From a virus (lineage: Duplodnaviria; Heunggongvirae; Uroviricota; Caudoviricetes): DNA of 11,444 bases. The position numbers were made by a program, and so were the translations under genes. Numbering within the stretch: the first letter of the stretch is position 1; the number at the start of each line of letters is the position of its first letter. Shown here in pieces: positions 2,145 to 11,444 of the stretch. The notes under the pieces are model-generated. The model did not search any database and was not told the origin of the DNA. It saw only the letters and a program-made list of their open reading frames with translations. The stretch lies in IMG/VR virus record IMGVR_UViG_2693429635_000028, one strand, 5' to 3'.

Positions 2145-5100
2145 ATGGGTAAAGGAAGCAGTAAGGGGCATACCCCGCGCGAAGCGAAGGACAACCTGAA
2201 GTCCACGCAGTTGCTGAGTGTGATTGATGCCATCAGTGAAGGGCCGATTGAAGGTCCGGTGGATGGATTAAAAAGCGTGCTGCTGAACAGTACGCCGGTG
2301 CTGGACAGTGATGGGAATACCAACATCGCCGGTGTCACGGTGGTGTTCCGGGCTGGTGAGCAGGAGCAGACTCCGCCGGAGGGATTTGAATCCTCCGGCT
2401 CCGAGACGGTGTTGGGTACGGAAGTGAAATACGACACGCCGATCACCCGCGCCATCACGTCGGCAAACATCGACCGACTGCGCTTTACCTTCGGTGTGCA
2501 GGCACTGGTGGAAACCACCTCAAAGGGGGACCGGAATCCGTCGGAAGTTCGCCTGCTGGTTCAGATACAGCGTAATGGTGGCTGGGTGACGGAAAAAGAC
2601 ATCACCATTAAGGGCAAAACCACCTCGCAGTATCTGGCCTCGGTGGTGGTGGATAACCTGCCGCCGCGCCCGTTTAATATCCGGATGCGCAGAATGACGC
2701 CGGACAGCACCACAGACCAGCTGCAGAACAAAACGCTCTGGTCGTCATACACCGAAATCATCGATGTGAAACAGTGCTACCCGAACACGGCACTGGTCGG
2801 CGTGCAGGTGGACTCGGAACAGTTCGGCAGCCAGCAGGTGAGCCGTAATTATCATCTTCGCGGGCGCATTCTGCAGGTGCCGTCGAACTATAACCCGCAG
2901 ACGCGGCAATACAGCGGTATCTGGGACGGAACGTTTAAGCCAGCATACAGCAACAACATGGCCTGGTGTCTGTGGGATATGCTGACCCATCCGCGCTACG
3001 GCATGGGGAAGCGTCTCGGTGCGGCGGATGTGGACAAATGGGCGCTGTATGTCATCGGCCAGCATTGCGACCAGTCGGTGCCGGATGGCTTTGGTGGCAC
3101 GGAGCCGCGCATCACCTGTAATGCCTACCTGACCACACAGCGCAAGGCGTGGGATGTTCTCAGTGATTTCTGCTCGGCGATGCGCTGTATGCCGGTATGG
3201 AACGGGCAGACGCTGACGTTCGTGCAGGACCGACCGTCGGATAAGGTGTGGACCTATAACCGCAGTAATGTGGTGATGCCGGATGATGGTGCGCCGTTCC
3301 GCTACAGCTTCAGCGCCCTGAAGGACCGCCATAATGCCGTTGAGGTGAACTGGATTGACCCGAATAACGGCTGGGAGACGGCGACAGAGCTTGTGGAGGA
3401 CACGCAGGCCATTGCCCGTTACGGTCGTAACGTCACGAAGATGGATGCTTTTGGCTGTACCAGCCGGGGGCAGGCACACCGCGCCGGGCTGTGGCTGATT
3501 AAAACGGAGCTGCTGGAGACGCAGACCGTGGACTTCAGCGTGGGTGCCGAAGGGCTTCGCCATGTACCGGGCGATGTCATTGAAATCTGCGATGATGACT
3601 ATGCCGGTATCAGCACCGGCGGGCGCGTGCTGGCGGTGAACAGCCAGACCCGGACGCTGACGCTCGACCGTGAAATCACGCTGCCATCTTCCGGTACCAC
3701 GCTGATAAGCCTGGTTGACGGGCAGGGGAGTCCGGTCAGCGTGGAGGTCCAGTCCGTCACCGACGGCGTGAAGGTGAAAGTGAGCCGTGTTCCTGACGGC
3801 GTTGCCGGATACAGCGTATGGGGGCTGAAGTTGCCGACGCTGCGCCAGCGCCTGTTCCGCTGCGTGAGTATCCGTGAGAACGATGACGGCACGTATGCCA
3901 TCACCGCCGTGCAGCATGTACCGGAAAAAGAGGCCATCGTGGATAACGGGGCGCACTTTGACGGCGACCAGAGCGGCACGGTGAATGGTGTCACGCCGCC
4001 AGCGGTGCAGCACCTGACTGCCGAAGTCACCGCAGACAGCGGGGAATATCAGGTGCTGGCGCGCTGGGACACGCCGAAGGTGGTGAAGGGGGTGAGCTTC
4101 CTGCTCCGTCTGACCGTAACAGCGGACGACGGCAGTGAGCGGCTGGTCAGCACGGCCCGGACGACGGAAACCACATACCGCTTCAGGCAACTGGCGCCGG
4201 GGAACTACAGGCTGACAGTCCGGGCGGTAAATGCGTGGGGGCAGCAGGGCGATCCGGCGTCGGTATCGTTCCGGATTGCCGCACCGGCAGCACCGTCGAG
4301 GATTGAGCTGACGCCGGGCTATTTTCAGATAACCGCCACGCCGCATCTTGCCGTTTATGACCCGACGGTACAGTTTGAGTTCTGGTTCTCGGAAAAGCGG
4401 ATTACCGATATCAGGAAGGTTGAAACCACAGCGCGCTATCTTGGTACGGCGCTGTACTGGATAGCCGCCAGTATCAATATCAAACCGGGCCATGATTATT
4501 ATTTTTACGTTCGCAGTGTGAACACCGTTGGCAAATCGGCATTCGTGGAGGCTGTCGGTCAGCCGAGTGATGATGCATCAGGCTATCTGGATTTTTTCAA
4601 AGGCAAGATAGGGAAAACCCATCTGGCTCAGGAGCTGTGGACGCAGATTGATAACGGTCAGCTTGCGCCTGACCTGACTGAAATCAGGACGTCCATAACG
4701 GATGTCAGCAATGAAATAACACAGACCGTCAATAAGAAACTGGAAGACCAGAGTGCAGCGATCCAGCAGATACAGAAGGTTCAGGTTGATACAAATAATA
4801 ACCTGAACAGCATGTGGGCAGTGAAGCTGCAGCAGATGCAGGACGGACGCCTTTATATTGCGGGTATCGGTGCCGGTATTGAGAACACCCCTGACGGCAT
4901 GCAGAGTCAGGTGCTGCTGGCAGCAGACAGGATTGCGATGATTAATCCTGCGAATGGCAACACAAAGCCGATGTTTGTTGGTCAGGGCGATCAGATATTC
5001 ATGAATGAAGTGTTCCTGAAACGCCTGACGGCCCCCACCATTACCAGCGGCGGTAATCCTCCGGCATTTTCCCTGACATCAGACGGGAGACTGACGGCGA

Positions 5101-5642
5101 AAAATGCGGATATCAGTGGCAGTGTGAATGCGAACTCAGGAACGCTCAACAATGTCACGATTAACCAGAACTGTACGATTAAGGGCATGCTGGAGGCGAC
5201 CCAGGTCAGAGGAGATTTCGTTAAAGCTGTATCAAAAGCCTTCCCGAAAAAAGTCGGTACGTGGGGTAACACGGAAACACCAAACGGTACGGTTACAGTC
5301 ACCATCAGCGATGATCATAACTTTGACCGCCAGATTATTATTCCGCCCATTATTTTTAACGGTATAGCGTATGACGATCCGGGGAGCGGAAATAACCCAG
5401 GAGGCACGCGATACACGGGTTATGGTTTTGAAGTTCGCAAAAACGGCGTATTAATCGCATCCAGAGAAACTAAAGGGGCCATTCCCGGTAGTTACAGTGC
5501 AGTTATTGATATGCCGAGTGGCAGGGGAAGCGTCACTCTGGAGTTTAAGATTTTCCAGAAAGGCAATCAGGGGGCAGGCAATATCACCGACTGTACGGTG
5601 ATTGTGACCAAAAAAGCCGCTTCCGGCATCAGTATTCGTTGA
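2145..5642 (+). CDS. J: Host specificity protein J (tail tip central fibre), 1165 aa; N-terminal ~800 aa lambda-like with fibronectin type III repeats, C-terminal receptor-binding region divergent
   Basis: ORF begins [38 protein letters not shown], as lambda gpJ does. FN3-like segment ([26 protein letters not shown]). Good SD (GAGGA) 3 nt upstream. Length is 1165 aa versus 1132 aa for lambda J. Confidence 0.95.
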
Positions 5643-5712: not shown

Positions 5713-6312
5713 ATGCGTAAAGTTTGTGCAGCCATTTTGTCCGCAGCCATTTGTCTGGCCGTATCCGGTGCGCCTGCATGGGCGTCTGAACATCAGTCCA
5801 CGCTGAGCGCGGGGTATCTTCATGCCTCGACGAACGTCCCCGGCAGTGATGATCTGAACGGGATTAACGTGAAATACCGTTATGAGTTTACGGACACACT
5901 GGGGCTGGTGACGTCATTCAGCTATGCAGGAGACAAGAATCGCCAGCTGACCCGTTACAGCGATACCCGCTGGCATGAAGATTCCGTTCGTAACCGCTGG
6001 TTCAGCGTAATGGCGGGGCCGTCTGTGCGCGTGAATGAATGGTTCAGCGCGTATGCGATGGCGGGTGTAGCTTACAGCCGTGTGTCGACTTTCTCCGGGG
6101 ATTATCTTCGCGTAACTGACAACAAGGGGAAAAAGCACGATGTGCTGACCGGAAGTGATGACGGTCGCCACAGCAACACGTCTCTGGCGTGGGGGGCTGG
6201 CGTGCAGTTTAACCCGACCGAATCCGTGGCCATTGATATTGCTTATGAAGGCTCCGGCAGTGGTGACTGGCGCACTGACGGTTTCATCGTGGGTGTCGGT
6301 TATAAATTCTGA
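5713..6312 (+). CDS. lom: Lom/Ail/PagC/OmpX-family outer-membrane beta-barrel protein (lysogenic-conversion-type moron)
   Basis: 199-aa ORF with an N-terminal signal peptide (MRKVCAAILSAAICLAVSGAPAWA|SE) and a C-terminal ...DIAYEGSGSGDWRTDGFIVGVGYKF ending in an aromatic residue, as in lambda Lom. SD GAGAGG 6 nt upstream. Same position as lambda lom, downstream of J. Confidence 0.9.
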   Translation: MRKVCAAILSAAICLAVSGAPAWASEHQSTLSAGYLHASTNVPGSDDLNGINVKYRYEFTDTLGLVTSFSYAGDKNRQLTRYSDTRWHEDSVRNRWFSVMAGPSVRVNEWFSAYAMAGVAYSRVSTFSGDYLRVTDNKGKKHDVLTGSDDGRHSNTSLAWGAGVQFNPTESVAIDIAYEGSGSGDWRTDGFIVGVGYKF

Positions 6313-6365: not shown

Positions 6366-6376
6366 GTGGGGTGAAT

Positions 6377-9300
6377 ATGGCAGTAAAGATTTCAGGTGTA
6401 CTGAAAGACGGCACAGGAAAACCGGTACAGAACTGCACAATCCAGCTGAAAGCAAAACGTAACAGCACCACGGTGGTGGTGAACACGCTGGCCTCAGAAA
6501 ATCCGGATGAAGCCGGGCGTTACAGCATGGACGTTGAGTACGGGCAGTACAGCGTTATTCTGTTGGTGGAGGGATTCCCGCCGTCACATGCCGGGACCAT
6601 CACCGTGTATGAAGATTCCCGACCCGGTACGCTGAATGATTTTCTCGGTGCCATGACGGAGGATGATGCCCGTCCTGAGGCACTGCGCCGTTTTGAACTG
6701 ATGGTGGAAGAGGTGGCGCGTAACGCGTCCGCGGTGGCACAGAACACGGCAGCCGTGAAGAAGTCAGCCAGCGATGCCAGCACATCAGCCCGTGAGGCGG
6801 CAACCCATGCGACTGATGCTGCAGGCTCAGCACGCGCAGCCAGCACGTCAGCCGGACAGGCCGCGTCGTCGGCTCAGTCAGCATCTTCCAGCGCAGGAAC
6901 GGCATCAACAAAGGCCAGTGAAGCATCGAAAAGTGCTGCTGCTGCAGAGTCCTCAAAAAGCGCGGCAGCTACCAGTGCCGCTGCGGCGAAAACGTCAGAA
7001 ACGAATGCGGCAGCGTCACAACAATCAGCAGCCACTTCTGCATCCGCCGCGACCACGAAGGCGTCAGAAGCAGCCACCTCAGCCCGGGATGCGGCGGCCT
7101 CAAAAGAGGCAGCGAAATCATCAGAAACGAACGCATCATCAAGCGCCAGTAGTGCCGCTTCCTCGGCAACGGCGGCAGCAAATTCTGCGAAGGCGGCCAA
7201 AACGTCTGAGACAAACGCCAGGTCTTCTGAAACGGCAGCGGGACAGAGCGCCTCGGCTGCGGCAGGCTCAAAAACAGCGGCTGCGTCGTCTGCCAGTGCC
7301 GCGTCAACAAGTGCCGGGCAGGCCTCAGCCAGTGCCACCGCCGCCGGAAAATCGGCAGAAAGTGCCGCATCGTCTGCTTCAACAGCCACAACGAAGGCTG
7401 GCGAAGCCACTGAACAGGCCAGCGCAGCAGCGAGGTCTGCTTCCGCAGCGAAGACATCCGAGACGAACGCGAAAGCGTCGGAAACCAGCGCAGAATCCTC
7501 AAAAACGGCTGCCGCATCGTCCGCCAGTTCGGCGGCGTCATCGGCATCATCGGCGTCTGCTTCAAAAGATGAGGCGACCAGACAAGCGTCCGCAGCGAAG
7601 GGCAGCGCCACGACAGCATCCACGAAGGCGACAGAGGCAGCTGGCAGTGCGACGGCGGCAGCACAGAGCAAAAGTACGGCGGAATCCGCGGTAACGCGCG
7701 CCGAGACAGCGGCAAAACGGGCAGAGGATATTGCATCCGCCGTGGCGCTTGAGGATGCAAGTACGACGAAAAAGGGGATAGTACAGCTCAGCAGTGCGAC
7801 CAACAGTACGTCTGAAACGCTGGCGGCAACGCCAAAGGCAGTAAAATCAGCCTATGACAATGCAGAGAAACGTCTGCAGAAAGACCAGAACGGCGCTGAT
7901 ATACCCGATAAGGGACGCTTCCTGAACAACATTAACGCGGTCAGTAAAACAGACTTTGCTGATAAGCGTGGTATGCGTTATGTGCGGGTTAACGCTCCTG
8001 CAGGTGCAATATCTGGAAAATATTACCCTGTTGTTGTTATGCGTTCTGCTGGCTCAGTAAGCGAACTGGCATCAAGGGTCATTATCACCACGGCAACGCG
8101 AACCGCAGGCGATCCGATGAATAACTGCGAGTTTAACGGATTTGTTATGCCTGGTGGCTGGACTGACAGGGGGCGTTATGCTTATGGAATGTTCTGGCAA
8201 TATCAAAACAATGAACGAGCCATCCACTCAATAATGATGAGTAATAAGGGCGATGATTTGCGCTCTGTGTTCTATGTTGATGGCGCTGCTTTCCCTGTTT
8301 TTGCGTTTATCGAAGATGGCCTGTCAATATCCGCACCTGGTGCTGATCTCGTTGTTAATGATACGACCTATAAGTTTGGGGCAACAAATCCGGCGACTGA
8401 ATGTATCGCGGCGGACGTTATCCTTGATTTTAAGAGTGGGCGTGGTTTTTATGAGTCTCATTCGTTAATCGTTAACGATAACTTGTCGTGCAAAAAACTT
8501 TTTGCCACAGACGAAATTGTAGCGCGTGGTGGTAATCAGATTCGAATGATAGGTGGGGAGTATGGGGCATTATGGCGTAATGATGGCGCTAAAACTTACC
8601 TGCTGCTTACCAATCAAGGTGATGTTTATGGTGGCTGGAATACATTAAGACCGTTTGCTATTGATAACGCAACCGGCGAACTGGTTATTGGAACCAAACT
8701 GTCCGCAAGTCTGAACGGTAATGCATTAACAGCAACAAAGCTGCAAACGCCAAGACGGGTTTCTGGTGTTGAGTTTGATGGTTCCAAAGATATTACTTTA
8801 ACCGCCGCGCATGTGGCTGCTTTTGCCAGAAGGGCAACGGATACATATGCCGATGCGGATGGTGGCGTTCCCTGGAATGCCGAATCAGGCGCTTACAATG
8901 TCACCCGCTCTGGCGACAGCTATATTCTGGTTAACTTCTATACCGGAGTCGGAAGTTGCCGGACCCTGCAGATGAAGGCGCATTACAGAAATGGTGGTCT
9001 GTTCTACCGTTCTTCAAGAGATGGCTATGGTTTTGAGGAAGACTGGGCAGAAGTTTATACCTCGAAAAATCTTCCACCAGAAAGCTACCCAGTCGGCGCA
9101 CCAATCCCGTGGCCATCAGATACCGTTCCGTCTGGTTATGCCCTGATGCAGGGGCAGACTTTTGACAAATCTGCCTACCCGAAACTTGCTGCCGCTTATC
9201 CGTCAGGCGTGATCCCTGATTTGCGTGGCTGGACGATTAAGGGCAAGCCCGCCAGTGGTCGTGCCGTATTGTCTCAGGAACAGGATGGCATTAAATCGCA

Positions 9301-9775
9301 TACCCACAGCGCCAGCGCATCCAGTACGGATTTGGGGACGAAAACCACATCGTCGTTTGATTACGGCACTAAATCCACGAATAACACTGGTGCGCATACC
9401 CATAGTTTAAGTGGCAGCACGAATGCAGCTGGTAATCACAGCCATAGAGATGGCCGTCGATTTAACCCCAGTGTTTTTAAAGATACTTATCAATATGGTT
9501 ATACAAGCTCAGGTCAAAATACCTGGGGTGTACAAGGCTCAGTAGGTATGTCTACGGGGTGGTTAGCGAATACCAGTACAGATGGTAATCATAGCCATTC
9601 ACTGTCCGGCACAGCAGCATCTGCAGGTGCACACGCGCATACTGTCGGTATTGGTGCTCATACGCACTCCGTTGCGATTGGTTCACATGGACACACCATC
9701 ACCGTTAACGCTGCTGGTAACGCGGAAAACACCGTCAAAAACATCGCATTTAACTATATTGTGAGGCTTGCATAA
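6377..9775 (+). CDS. stf: Side tail fibre protein Stf, long intact form (~1132 aa from the ATG at 6377; the ORF track extends to the GTG at 6371)
   Basis: N-terminus [26 protein letters not shown]... matches lambda Stf (orf-401) as I recall it. Long Ala/Ser-rich repeat region. C-terminus with repeated HxH motifs and ...[26 protein letters not shown], as at the lambda Stf / T4 gp37-type fibre tip. Stop TAA overlaps the tfa ATG (ATAATG). Confidence 0.9.
6730..7730 (+). repeat. Low-complexity Ala/Ser/Thr-rich coding repeat inside stf, with a recurring A-A-K-T/S-S-E-T-N-A motif (4 copies)
   Basis: Motif copies at about 6988-7014, 7116-7139, 7200-7223 and 7452-7475 (AAKTSETNA / AAKSSETNA). The composition generates long spurious ORFs in other frames and on the opposite strand. 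Confidence 0.8.
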
Positions 9776-10359
9776 TGGCATTCAGAATGAGTGAACAAGC
9801 ACGGACCATAAAAATTTATAATCTGCTGGCCGGAACTAATGAATTTATTGGTGAAGGTGATGCATATATTCCGCCTCATACAGGTCTGCCAGCAAACAGT
9901 ACCGATATTGCACCACCAGATATTCCTGCTGGCTTTGTGGCTGTTTTCAACAGTGATGAGGCATCGTGGCATCTCGTTGAAGACCATCGGGGTAAAACGG
10001 TTTATGACGTAGCGTCAGGGGACGAGTTATTTATTTCTGAACTCGGTCCGTTACCGGAAAATGTTACCTGGTTATCGCCGGAAGGGGAGTTTCAGAAGTG
10101 GAACGGCACAGCCTGGGTGAAAGATGCAGAAGCAGAAAAACTGTTCCGGATCCGAGAGGCGGAAGAAATAAAAAACAGCCTGATGCAGGTAGCCAGTGAG
10201 CATATTGCGCCACTTCAGGATGCTGTAGATCTGGAAATCGCAACGGAGGAAGAAACCTCATTGCTGGAAGCCTGGAAAAAGTATCGGGTGTTGCTGAACC
10301 GTGTTGATACATCAACTGCACCTGATATTGAGTGGCCTACGAACCCTGTCAGGGAGTAA
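9775..10359 (+). CDS. tfa: Tail fibre assembly protein Tfa (chaperone for Stf)
   Basis: 194-aa ORF, the same length as lambda Tfa and closely matching it as recalled ([78 protein letters not shown]...). Start is translationally coupled to the stf stop. Confidence 0.95.
10195..10314 (+). repeat. Direct repeat copy 1 (tfa 3' coding segment), about 89% identical to 11244-11363
   Basis: Manual alignment: 13 mismatches over 120 nt between 10195-10314 and 11244-11363, same orientation. Confidence 0.85.
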
Positions 10360-10373
10360 TCATTGGGATTATG

Positions 10374-10406
10374 CCGCAGCACGTCTTAAGCAAGAACGTG
10401 CTGCGG
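10374..10406. promoter_or_regulatory. Perfect 11-bp inverted repeat (CCGCAGCACGT ... ACGTGCTGCGG, 11-nt loop) between the convergent tfa and methyltransferase genes; possible bidirectional terminator or RNA-processing hairpin
   Basis: Read directly: ccgcagcacgt-cttaagcaaga-acgtgctgcgg. There is no adjacent U-tract on either strand (the T6 run at 10417-10422 is 10 nt away), so it is not a canonical intrinsic terminator. Confidence 0.4.
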
Positions 10407-10413
10407 TTGGATG

Positions 10414-11082
10414 CTATTTTTTCCCTGAAGCGGAAAACATTACTACAGTACCTTGAACCTTGGTTTTAACATTCTCGAAATGCTCTGAGAGTATATGTGT
10501 TAAGCCTTCTTCGGAATCTTTTGTGTTTGAAAAGATGCCTTTCTGATTGTAAATGCGCATCAGTTTTTGACCGAAGCTATTGTGCACAACTCCATCGCCA
10601 AGAATTGTGGCTCCGTATAGAGTTCCATCGTCAGTTAAGGCCTGCGCCGCATTGCGTATTACACAGCTTTTTGTAGATATATTTCCAGGCAGGCAGTGAA
10701 GAAGGTAAAACATGGAAATGGAATCAAATTGACCATGTAACGCCGCGGGATAAGGTTCAAAAACATCATGGCTAATTTTATGTTTAATTTTTGATTCCCC
10801 AGCCCTTGTAGATGCCGCGTTCAGGCTAGCTTCGTTCAAATCCATTAAAGATATCAGACTACTCTCAGGTACGTGAGTAAGGTAAAACCCAGTTCCAACA
10901 CCAATATCCAGATGGTTGTTACCTAAATGTTCCAGAAAGTGTGGAAGAAGGTGTTCCTTTGTAGGACATCCCCATGCAAGCCGATTTGATACTCCCAAAA
11001 CCCACCAGTCATAAAGCTTTAGGGTAAGTGGTGTGTAAATTTTAGCCCCATCATCTGTGTTTTTTTTCATTAATTTCACCAT
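10414..11082 (-). CDS. Putative class I SAM-dependent methyltransferase encoded by a low-GC moron (222 aa; the true start may be the internal ATG at 11070, which has a GGTGA SD)
   Basis: Motif I-like HLDIGVGTGFY followed about 20 aa later by an acidic residue (LISLMDLNEAS), consistent with a Rossmann-fold SAM-binding site. Markedly more AT-rich than the flanking tail genes. Opposite strand to the tail operon. By recollection only (unverified), similar cassettes such as ybcY in E. coli DLP12 sit between tfa copies. Confidence 0.6.
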   Translation of the reverse strand: MVKLMKKNTDDGAKIYTPLTLKLYDWWVLGVSNRLAWGCPTKEHLLPHFLEHLGNNHLDIGVGTGFYLTHVPESSLISLMDLNEASLNAASTRAGESKIKHKISHDVFEPYPAALHGQFDSISMFYLLHCLPGNISTKSCVIRNAAQALTDDGTLYGATILGDGVVHNSFGQKLMRIYNQKGIFSNTKDSEEGLTHILSEHFENVKTKVQGTVVMFSASGKK

Positions 11083-11138
11083 GTTATAGTTTTATTTGTG
11101 AATTAAATCAATTATGGCGATGAATTACAAGGGGTTAA

Positions 11139-11444
11139 ATGCTGCCGCAGCATAGCGATATTGAAATAGCCTGGTATGCTTCGATACAACAGGAGCCGAA
11201 TGGCTGGAAGACCGTCACCACACAGTTCTACATCCAGGAATTCAGTGAGTATATTGCGCCACTGCAGGATGCTGTAGATCTGGAAATCGCAACGGAGGAA
11301 GAAAGATCGTTGCTGGAGGCATGGAATAAATATCGGGTATTGTTGAATCGAGTTGATACATCAGTAGCTCTGGGTATGAAGCTGTTTGTAACTCATGTTA
11401 CAGTAACAGTCATTACTATCTCGAAGGTGCAAAATGTATATTGA
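11139..11444 (+). CDS. Truncated/remnant tail fibre assembly (Tfa-like) protein, 101 aa, probably a relic of a second tfa copy
   Basis: The internal segment [39 protein letters not shown] is near-identical to Tfa residues encoded at 10195-10314. N- and C-terminal flanks are unrelated to Tfa. SD-like AAGGGG upstream of the ATG at 11139. The stop coincides with the window end. Confidence 0.55.
11244..11363 (+). repeat. Direct repeat copy 2 (inside the tfa-like remnant), about 89% identical to 10195-10314
   Basis: Same alignment as copy 1. Similarity ends abruptly after ...GTTGATACATCA in both copies. Confidence 0.85.

Follow-up and report, generated by a model that had tools for sequence, protein, structure and literature searches.

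A direct repeat of the tfa 3′ end around a ybcY-type methyltransferase gene in DLP12-type prophages of Escherichia coli: a probable scar of exchange between lambda-like genomes

Phage morons, in the concept of Hendrix and colleagues, are cargo genes which carry their own promoter and terminator and lie between phage genes. The gene order tfaD-ybcY-tfaX is already known from the DLP12 prophage of Escherichia coli K-12, and with it the repeat described here is known in kind. A literature search on ybcY and tfaX gave promoter-mapping papers only, with no mention of the repeats; at the ybcY<>tfaX spacer of K-12, RpoD holoenzyme is bound in both directions, as is H-NS (PMC3946193). De Paepe et al. 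2014 found that Red-beta and RecA allow lambda to recombine with the 88–96% identical stf/tfa regions of the prophages Rac and Qin, giving phage–prophage hybrids (PMC3945230). As for the Tfa proteins, the C-terminal helical region is said to mediate trimerisation and the variable N-terminal domain to bind the fibre, in the part of PMC9608196 which summarises North et al. 2019.

We analysed a stretch of 11,444 nucleotides (IMG/VR record IMGVR_UViG_2693429635_000028; "the window"). The sequence belongs to the DLP12 locus of E. coli, where it forms the last part of a lambda-like prophage, and O145 prophages of this locus, like phage PhiR26_1, match it at 100% identity. The gene order is J, lom, stf, tfa, a ybcY-type methyltransferase gene on the minus strand and a tfaX-type ORF, and this whole layout was found in approximately 1,500 of 5,426 complete E. 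coli genomes, including K-12. Genes, order, orientation and chromosomal locus are the same as in the K-12 DLP12 region tfaD-ybcY'-tfaX-appY-ompT, and the right-hand neighbours ompT-envY-ybcH-nfrA are shared, as in a DLP12-type arrangement. The two sequences are colinear from 10000 to 11368 (97.8% identity) and have in common a junction between a gp27-like gene fragment and tfa sequence.

The side tail fibre gene stf (6371–9775, plus strand; Pfam phage_tail_N, Gp34_trimer and Collar; side tail fiber protein in PhiR26_1) is the partner of tfa (9775–10359, plus strand), which overlaps the stf stop at 9775 and so lies directly downstream of a fibre gene, the position expected of a Caudo_TAP gene. 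The 194-aa Tfa protein matches Caudo_TAP (PF02413) over profile positions 1–130 of 131 (E = 1.6e−44; 151.6 bits against a cut-off of 22.1) and is thus a full-length tail fibre assembly protein. Lambda tfa is 93% identical to it at the DNA level and the lambda match continues to 10408, just past a strong hairpin with a 15-bp stem (10373–10406) in the space where tfa and the methyltransferase gene converge. This hairpin marks a conserved boundary between modules, and lambda homology goes no further. It was found by folding only (10360–10425: −28.5 kcal/mol on the plus strand, −25.6 on the minus strand), and a consensus scan of 10200–11444 gave no canonical terminator.

The methyltransferase gene (10414–11082, minus strand) encodes a 222-aa class I SAM-dependent enzyme of the ybcY type (Pfam Methyltransf_12, 23, 25 and 11) which is annotated YbcY in PhiR26_1 and matches phrog_2132, a PHROG annotated "unknown function". 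No NCBIfam family was assigned to any of the three proteins searched, this one included. Its GC content is approximately 41–43%, compared with 48–49% for tfa. Homologues at 61–64% identity are present in Enterobacter chromosomes, away from tfa; we considered these as a donor context and rejected them, as their neighbours include neither tfa nor a gp27-like gene and are silent on the junction. A divergent spacer (11083–11138) separates the gene from the tfaX-type ORF and contains a promoter-like site on the minus strand (11138–11111, 9/12), although the number of such sites is not above that in shuffled sequence. The sequence-only reading of this DNA had called the segment between the repeats a moron with a methyltransferase, and a moron-like cargo methyltransferase is indeed what it contains.

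Realignment of the repeats gave the colinear, same-orientation pair of about 120 bp and about 89% identity which that reading had described. Copy 1 (10195–10314, plus strand; tfa codons 141–180) and copy 2 (11244–11363, plus strand; the same codons of a second tfa, of which it is a relic) are ungapped direct repeats identical at 107 of 120 positions (89.2%), both in the tfa reading frame, with copy 2 also in frame with the fragment upstream of it. A repeat search found this to be the single long direct repeat of the window, 10183–10314 against 11232–11363 at a spacing of 1049 (87% over 132 nt); the 12-nt patchy extension at the 5′ end, from 10183 in copy 1, brings the ungapped count to 115/132. 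The longest perfect match between the copies is 40 nt (10216–10255), and other direct repeats in the window reach 20–37 nt at longest. After correction for all position pairs in the window, the chance of an identity of at least 107/120 is approximately 1e−34 to 1e−42. In both copies, similarity ends abruptly past ...GTTGATACATCA. The repeat is real, and as a recombination scar it is unremarkable, in a prophage which is very common in E. coli; that it covers the conserved C-terminal helical block of Tfa, as had been proposed, is borne out by the Caudo_TAP positions. Two chaperone genes are typical of invertible tail-fibre segments (the Mu G, P1 C and e14 P type), and in the related phage Turner a DNA invertase gene directly follows tfa, but there is next to no chance that the locus is a relic of such a segment with two tfa/U genes: the repeats are direct rather than inverted, no invertase is annotated in the window or in the 6 kb downstream, and the cix/gix-like core sites number 2 against 2.3 expected, neither inside the repeats.

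The second ORF (11139–11444, 101 aa) appears, from profile and translated searches, to be a fusion. Its N-terminus (11139–11243, plus strand) corresponds to 35 5′ codons of a small accessory gene of the phrog_3893 family (HK140 gp27-like). The similarity is short: the phrog_3893 profile is matched at positions 2–36 of 79 with E = 4e−7 for the whole ORF and 1.6e−7 for the 35-aa piece (approximately 1e−7 by profile, 2e−5 for the best full-length relative). By tblastn the N-terminus matches Ayreon (75%), Klebsiella phage Kp4882-3 (54%, E = 2e−5) and HK140, HK225 and mEp390 (34–38%). Full-length 79-aa relatives are present in Kp4882-3 and HK140; HK140 gp27 and the Kp4882-3 ORF match phrog_3893 over profile positions 1–78 at 1e−39 and 1e−37, respectively, whereas the match of the window ORF stops at position 36, so that only a 5′ fragment is present there. 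In the profile search, ORF residues 3–37 were assigned to phrog_3893 and residues 29–77 to tail-fibre-assembly families. Within Caudo_TAP, residues 31–77 align to profile positions 75–121 of 131, a partial match compared with positions 1–130 in tfa. The ORF does therefore retain only the conserved Tfa C-terminal region, as had been claimed; the context, which had been called unrelated, is unrelated to Tfa, but its left part can be identified as the phrog_3893 N-terminus. As the fibre-binding domain is absent, the second ORF cannot be a Tfa chaperone, and copy 2 has no fibre gene immediately upstream. The K-12 form of the ORF (61 aa) is UniProt TFAX_ECOLI, and the junction ...IQ(E/G)F|SE(Y/H)IAPLQ was found in all 15 carriers compared.

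It could be proposed that TfaX, which has its own PHROG family (phrog_2341), is a selected and functional small protein on whose account the repeat is maintained. The fusion is in frame, with a Shine-Dalgarno sequence rated good (AAGGGG, 6 nt 5′ of the ATG), intact forms of 101 aa and 89 aa each occur on at least 1,000 contigs, and RpoD binds at the K-12 spacer (PMC3946193). However, the C-termini of 16 copies have met at least four different kinds of fate (the K-12 nonsense codon, a frameshift in 2G7b and L013, the replaced tail of the window type and the 32-aa form of Ayreon), PGAP labels the ORF "incomplete; missing N-terminus" and a pseudogene, and the region is bound by H-NS (PMC3946193). 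We regard a functional TfaX as very unlikely and take the relic ORF to be, in all likelihood, without function. A more specific version, that the gp27-like/Tfa fusion is expressed and co-regulated with the methyltransferase from an H-NS-silenced divergent promoter and modulates tail-fibre assembly via mixed Tfa oligomers, is equally a long shot; if it were true, the fusion would hamper or modulate fibre assembly, whether in the resident phage or in a superinfecting one, and selection on the fusion protein would keep the direct repeat.

We then turn to the right edge of copy 2. In the window, the remainder of the tfa relic is replaced by the start of a hydrolase-type cargo flank, which supplies an out-of-context ORF tail (11364–11444, plus strand); colinearity with K-12 ends at 11368, and genes for an alpha/beta hydrolase and ompT follow further downstream. 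Copy 2 continues to its own tfa stop codon in K-12 and is also longer in ECMA0423/Shigella. In E. albertii, which has the same copy-2 allele as the window and a different continuation beyond the edge, it matches copy 1 over 227 nt, past the stop and terminator hairpin to the equivalent of 10408, the point to which lambda similarity also extends. The sharp edge at 11363 is thus, on comparison of relatives, specific to the window lineage. The similarity had been described as stopping sharply at the same point in both copies, and the drop is indeed abrupt, but since copy 2 of the relatives extends to the stop or the terminator, it reflects a lineage-specific truncation or an exchange of cargo between appY-type and hydrolase-type flanks, which was probably later, and not the founding event. 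The window copy 2 is itself mosaic, because it has 0/70 mismatches to K-12 copy 2 at 11232–11301 and 15/62 at 11302–11363.

Copy 1 and copy 2 differ by 9 synonymous and 3 non-synonymous codon changes. Together with the 227-nt E. albertii match and the K-12 stop codon, this points to copy 2 being derived from a once-functional tfa. If the tfa 3′ end had been tandemly duplicated in situ and the unused copy had then diverged, the repeats would be direct and closely spaced, as these are. Against this, the copies are 11–13% apart while strains are 98–100% identical across the region, the mostly synonymous 9:3 differences suit a selected gene rather than a decaying copy, and the copy-2 alleles of other lineages encode distinct complete Tfa C-termini (...PANPVRE, ...LIQP and ...PEEPDTM). 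Matches of copy 2 to independent functional tfa genes have in part been seen already, and a duplication which included ybcY predicts two methyltransferase copies, which are not seen. We therefore consider this explanation highly improbable.

The suggestion had been that homologous recombination in the conserved tfa C-terminal block captured the cassette along with a 3′ segment of a foreign tfa. In its favour, no part of tfa is more conserved than that in which the repeats fall, and this block is a site of homologous crossovers. In ev243 and 2G7b, which have no tfa gene, only the block from 10240 onwards is kept, and it accompanies the cassette behind tail-fibre genes that are unrelated (in Ayreon, it is kept from 10214 onwards); such tfa 3′ relics are recurrent scars. 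However, a reciprocal homologous exchange replaces sequence and cannot on its own duplicate a segment, and the inner edge of copy 2 at approximately 11243/11244 joins phrog_3893 codon 35 to tfa codon 141, which is non-homologous and contradicts the proposal for the founding junction. Integration of a circle by one Campbell-type crossover also fails to fit, since it is copy 1 and not copy 2 which has the intact 3′ end, stop and hairpin. Homologous capture is in our view unlikely.

We think with good confidence that the repeat was left behind when two lambda-like genomes underwent an unequal, non-homologous exchange, and that secondary recombination followed. The exchange would have taken place in the cargo region just 3′ of the tail-fibre genes. 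The left parent would have contributed stf, tfa, the hairpin, ybcY on the minus strand and the start of a gp27-like gene (phrog_3893), and the right parent the last approximately 55 tfa codons, its own hairpin and downstream cargo. An in-frame joint between codon 35 of the gp27-like gene and codon 141 of tfa would have created the TfaX-type chimeric ORF, and with it a doubled Tfa C-terminal block in direct orientation around the methyltransferase. As the junction at approximately 11243/11244 is non-homologous, the founding event would have been unequal and illegitimate, and because all carriers examined have this junction in common, we infer that it occurred once. Among the genomes recovered, none had ybcY beside a full-length phrog_3893 gene or a full-length tfa of pure copy-2 type, as the parents would have had. 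Later, the duplicated block would have acted like any homology of 120–230 bp and 85–95% identity in a Red/RecA-proficient setting. Crossovers between copy 1 and copy 2 would remove the 1,049-bp cassette and leave a chimeric full-length tfa, products which are seen in the appY-flanked type; copy 2 would also have swapped segments with other tfa alleles, as its mosaic composition in the window shows. The cargo to the right of copy 2 has by comparison been replaced, with the window lineage truncated at 11363–11368, and this would have been among the later events.

A search for prophages without the cassette recovered nine complete E. coli genomes which match, in one piece, an artificial query of tfa, copy 2 and the appY flank. 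The layout J-lom-stf-tfa-appY-ompT lies at the same chromosomal locus in 4/4 genomes examined. A breakpoint scan of these four placed the crossovers at 10216–10256, 10282–10291, 10297–10305 and 10309–10311, inside the repeat, and to the right of each breakpoint there were 0 mismatches to K-12 copy 2; the locus is the recombination footprint it had been taken for. Strains with chimeric tfa alleles include CFIAFB20190172 and O169:H41. One of the four chimeric alleles, that of EM18-18-42, contains the K-12 tfaX nonsense codon and is annotated "internal stop". An exact 1,049-bp deletion simulated in XH988, the best cassette-bearing twin found for EM18-18-42 and only 99.0% identical to it, reproduces the EM18-18-42 sequence at 99.0% with no indels. 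The left allele of SFE8 also adjoins ybcY in other strains (99.3%). Judging from the chimeric SNP patterns and the one shared nonsense codon, the cassette-less genomes appear to be derived and not ancestral, and exchange with a cassette-less phage would yield the same products as an intramolecular deletion. As a substrate for RecA- or Red-mediated deletion, the repeat has a 40-nt perfect core, where uninterrupted identity of at least about 25–40 bp is expected, as well as recombinant products, which are of the appY type only (nine genomes, four with breakpoints examined). The expectation that excision and chimeric tfa alleles would occur thus holds for the K-12 (appY-flanked) type, to which 580 strains belong; for the window type, neither an empty site with tfa joined to the hydrolase flank nor a deletion variant was found in 5,426 genomes, 900 of which are window-type. 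It should be noted that ev099 and PhiR42_1 were rejected as cassette-less variants, as their tfa merely diverges after 10337 into unrelated DNA.

These results explain the K-12 "TfaX" ORF as the product of a fusion in which part of a phrog_3893 gene precedes the end of a tfa gene, and the second ORF should not be named a tail fibre assembly protein in annotation. They also provide a clean natural case of repeated cargo-gene loss via short direct repeats of approximately 88% identity left by an earlier illegitimate exchange. Users of such prophages and of phages of the PhiR26_1 type should expect occasional tfa chimeras and ybcY loss in appY-type relatives. The identity of TfaX and the cargo loss are both consistent with accepted lambdoid mosaicism, and their importance beyond bookkeeping is small.

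Compared with K-12 DLP12, in which ybcY is a pseudogene, tfaD is 5′-truncated and tfaX has a nonsense codon, the window prophage has a complete tail region (J, lom, stf and full tfa) and an intact methyltransferase gene; K-12 copy 2 keeps its tfa stop and is followed by appY, whereas that of the window is cut at 11363–11368 and followed by the alpha/beta hydrolase gene. The methyltransferase is moron-like in opposing the late operon, with a strong hairpin on one side and a spacer with a putative divergent promoter on the other, in its lower GC content and in its Enterobacter chromosomal homologues. Unlike a moron, it has its place in a general cargo region (hydrolase or appY, ompT) where the tail operon ends, without essential genes on both sides and without a canonical U-tract terminator by scan. 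Relative to the Tfa/Caudo_TAP chaperones (lambda Tfa, Mu U/TfaMu), copy 1 is part of a full Caudo_TAP protein, whereas copy 2 covers profile positions 75–121 only, on an unrelated N-terminus. The chimeric tfa alleles, with their scattered crossovers, resemble the hybrids of De Paepe et al. 2014 (PMC3945230), which were inter-molecular, between lambda and Rac or Qin, over approximately 700 bp of homology. Here a single prophage supplies both partners, as direct repeats separated by 1 kb and with 120–230 bp of homology, and the cargo gene is therefore lost.

The window covers the distal tail region of a lambda-like prophage, with J at 2145-5642, lom at 5713-6312, stf (side tail fibre) at 6371-9775 and tfa at 9775-10359, then a minus-strand gene for a class I SAM-dependent methyltransferase of 222 aa (10414-11082) and an ORF of 101 aa (11139-11444). 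A 582-aa ORF antisense within J (2745-4493, minus strand) is probably a shadow ORF of this GC-rich gene. A repeat search found several degenerate repeat families with 21-63-nt spacing and Ala/Ser/Thr-rich units in the N-terminal third of stf (6952-7563), which look like a repetitive shaft region, and repeated His-x-His motifs (GNHSH, AHAHT, GAHTHS and GSHGHT) at the Stf C-terminus (9377-9700), which resemble metal-binding His boxes at the tips of other fibres. The 45-aa hypothetical protein WP_001309429.1 in RefSeq (10332-10469), which spans the tfa stop, a hairpin and the convergent methyltransferase end, is probably a spurious call.

The tfa-methyltransferase-ORF layout is very common: 1,494 of 5,426 complete E. 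coli genomes cover at least 80% of 9700-11444, and tfa adjoins the methyltransferase gene in 2,365. Prophages of E. coli strains including O145, and the temperate phage isolate PhiR26_1, match the final 1,745 bases of the window at 100% identity. Downstream of this stretch the O145 chromosome has an alpha/beta hydrolase gene, ompT, envY, ybcH and nfrA, and the locus is the site of the K-12 cryptic prophage DLP12; K-12 is colinear with the window over 10000-11368 at 97.8% identity. The ompT and hydrolase region downstream of the window also lies in record L002 (7929-10553). In the plaque-forming lambda-like isolates PhiR26_1 (L001, 5929-8553), ev243, 2G7b and Turner (L004-L006), the right arm contains ompT and the gene for an alpha/beta hydrolase of 494 aa, and the OmpT outer-membrane protease is therefore mobile phage cargo and not solely a DLP12 relic. 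Three contigs 97-100% identical to the region (L013, L019 and L025) lie in metagenome-assembled genomes labelled Bacillus sp., Planococcaceae and Segatella copri, labels which almost certainly reflect binning contamination.

A direct-repeat search aligned 10183-10314 with 11232-11363 at 87% identity over 132 nt. Realignment of 10195-10314 in tfa (copy 1) with 11244-11363 in the 101-aa ORF (copy 2) was ungapped, colinear and in direct orientation, with 107/120 positions identical (89.2%) and a perfect core of 40 nt (10216-10255), in agreement with the sequence-only reading of direct repeats of about 120 bp and 89% identity. A chance origin is ruled out by more than 25 orders of magnitude. Twelve codons differ between the copies, 9 of them synonymously, and copy 2 was formerly part of a working tfa.

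We found that tfa matched the whole Caudo_TAP profile (Pfam) and the 101-aa ORF positions 75-121 only, so that this ORF does, as had been proposed, keep just the conserved Tfa C-terminal block. Among PHROGs, residues 29-77 matched tail-fibre-assembly families and residues 3-37 matched positions 2-36 of phrog_3893 (E 4e-7), a family of small accessory genes to which HK140 gp27 and an ORF of Klebsiella phage Kp4882-3 matched end to end (E 1e-39 and 1e-37). By tblastn against phage genomes, the first 35 residues matched the start of this 79-aa Kp4882-3 ORF (54% identity, E 2e-5) and, more weakly, HK140 gp27, HK225 and mEp390; these weaker matches sit in the accessory region between tail fibre genes and integrase. 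These N- and C-terminal matches indicate that the ORF is an in-frame chimera of 35 gp27-like codons and tfa from codon 141. The junction falls near 11243/11244, where 11232-11243 offers no more than patchy microhomology, and is common to 15/15 carriers read (E. coli, Shigella, E. albertii and several phages). The entire ORF has its own family (phrog_2341), and its exact sequences are present in databases, the K-12 form being UniProt TFAX_ECOLI.

The similarity was said to stop sharply at one point, and in the window both copies do diverge past GTTGATACATCA. However, the right end of copy 2 varies by lineage, and this shared stop is therefore secondary. In E. albertii the window's copy-2 allele runs on through a further 15 residues, a stop codon and the hairpin, and matches copy 1 for 227 nt, as far as the position equivalent to 10408, exactly where prophage-lambda homology ends. 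Copy 2 of E. coli ECMA0423 and Shigella shares 94.8% identity with copy 1 and terminates in PEEPDTM and a stop codon; the K-12 copy reaches APDIEWLIQP and two stop codons but has a TGG-to-TGA nonsense codon. The window's copy ends at 11363-11368, the start of the hydrolase-type flank, and the sharp edge is a truncation or exchange of cargo that arose later in this lineage; the founding event did not produce it. Against K-12 copy 2 its first 70 nt are identical and its last 62 nt contain 15 differences, and it is therefore itself mosaic. An in-situ duplication of the tfa 3' end is contradicted by these different, complete C-termini of copy-2 alleles and by the 11-13% divergence, biased to synonymous changes. 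ECMA0423 carries two methyltransferase and chimeric-ORF blocks at different chromosomal positions (L012 and L015; 1.93 and 2.10 Mb), neither having a copy 1 in the 3 kb that follow the methyltransferase gene downstream; the window match begins at 10374.

The repeats had been read as a recombination footprint, which is borne out, and as homologous capture of the methyltransferase cassette with a foreign tfa 3' segment at the conserved tfa block, which fails at the founding junction. Homologous exchange cannot produce a duplication, and copy 2 has a non-homologous inner edge. Most simply, two lambdoid genomes would have undergone an unequal illegitimate exchange that joined gp27-like codon 35 to tfa codon 141, with tfa, hairpin, ybcY (minus strand) and the gp27-like gene from one and tfa, hairpin and cargo from the other. 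A relic of an invertible segment is contradicted by the direct orientation of the repeats, by the lack of any invertase and by cix-like sites that are no more frequent than chance predicts. Phage Turner (L005, 1244-3000) has about 1.75 kb with a DNA invertase and several tiny ORFs in the tfa-to-hairpin interval, and this module boundary (about 10337-10374) has therefore accepted an inversion-system insertion. In ev243 and 2G7b, unrelated fibre genes are followed by a tfa relic starting at 10240. Ayreon (L026, 2239-2587) has a tfa relic from 10214, the hairpin and the last 12 methyltransferase codons; 10450-11108 is deleted, joining 10449 to 11109, where the spacer upstream of the methyltransferase and a gp27-like fragment of 32 aa follow. 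Here the cargo gene was lost independently, via a different, non-repeat deletion.

We searched two artificial deletion products, kept short so that the normal arrangement could not merge into a single match, against the 5,426 genomes. The window-type product, in which tfa runs directly into the hydrolase flank, was found in 0 of the 5,426, although 900 of them hold that flank. The K-12-type product, made of the 5' portion of tfa, copy 2 and the appY flank, gave one uninterrupted match in 9 of the 580 genomes with its flank. Thus the suggestion that the repeats could excise the cassette or make chimeric tfa alleles holds for the appY type, with no example seen in the hydrolase type. The four cassette-less genomes examined all have the product at one locus (J-lom-stf-tfa-appY-ompT-envY-ybcH-nfrA), with a tfa of 191 codons. 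Diagnostic SNPs, with K-12 copy 2 as reference, showed that in 4/4 the left side is copy-1-like and the right side has 0 mismatches to K-12 copy 2, the switch falling in four different intervals (window equivalents): 10216-10256 in EM18-18-42, 10282-10291 in O169:H41, 10297-10305 in CFIAFB20190172 and 10309-10311 in the SFE8 group. The divergent left allele of SFE8 adjoins ybcY in other strains (99.3%), and a simulated deletion of exactly 1,049 bp from XH988 gives EM18-18-42 at 99.0%, indel-free. The EM18-18-42 tfa contains the K-12 tfaX nonsense codon (flagged as an internal stop in RefSeq), as expected of a decayed relic recombined into a working gene. From these sequences we conclude that deletion, or an equivalent exchange, inside the repeat has probably occurred several times; exchange with a phage that lacks the cassette would yield identical products. 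Red-beta/RecA-type recombination between the repeats is plausible: lambda uses Red-beta and RecA to recombine with the Rac and Qin stf/tfa segments, which are 88-96% identical (PMC3945230). Encoded by the repeated block is the conserved Tfa C-terminal helical part, which PMC9608196, citing North et al. 2019, describes as thought to trimerise, the variable N-terminal domain binding the fibre, and crossovers within it alter few residues. In a window-type deletion the last 14 Tfa residues would become an unrelated 27-residue tail; this replacement, or shorter homology, may lie behind the lack of such deletions.

The methyltransferase looks like acquired cargo. Its Enterobacter chromosomal homologues (61-64% identity) have no phage genes nearby, it has a lower GC content than tfa, and folding predicts a strong hairpin on its 3' side (stem about 15 bp, -28.5 kcal/mol). 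The K-12 spacer upstream of ybcY is bound by RpoD in both directions and also by H-NS (PMC3946193). The relic ORF is probably not functional: despite a good predicted ribosome-binding site and an intact reading frame in many genomes, it is called a pseudogene by PGAP and ends in five ways among the copies read (101, 89, 66 by frameshift, 61 by nonsense, and 32 aa), and a functional small protein seems very improbable.

The sequence-only reading was correct in observation and half right in interpretation. This analysis makes two small additions: it identifies the TfaX N-terminus and catalogues natural deletion recombinants. The structure itself is already known as the tfaD-ybcY-tfaX arrangement, long annotated in DLP12-type prophages and an ordinary case of lambdoid mosaicism; in K-12 DLP12, tfaD, ybcY (a pseudogene), tfaX, appY and ompT stand in the same order and orientation.
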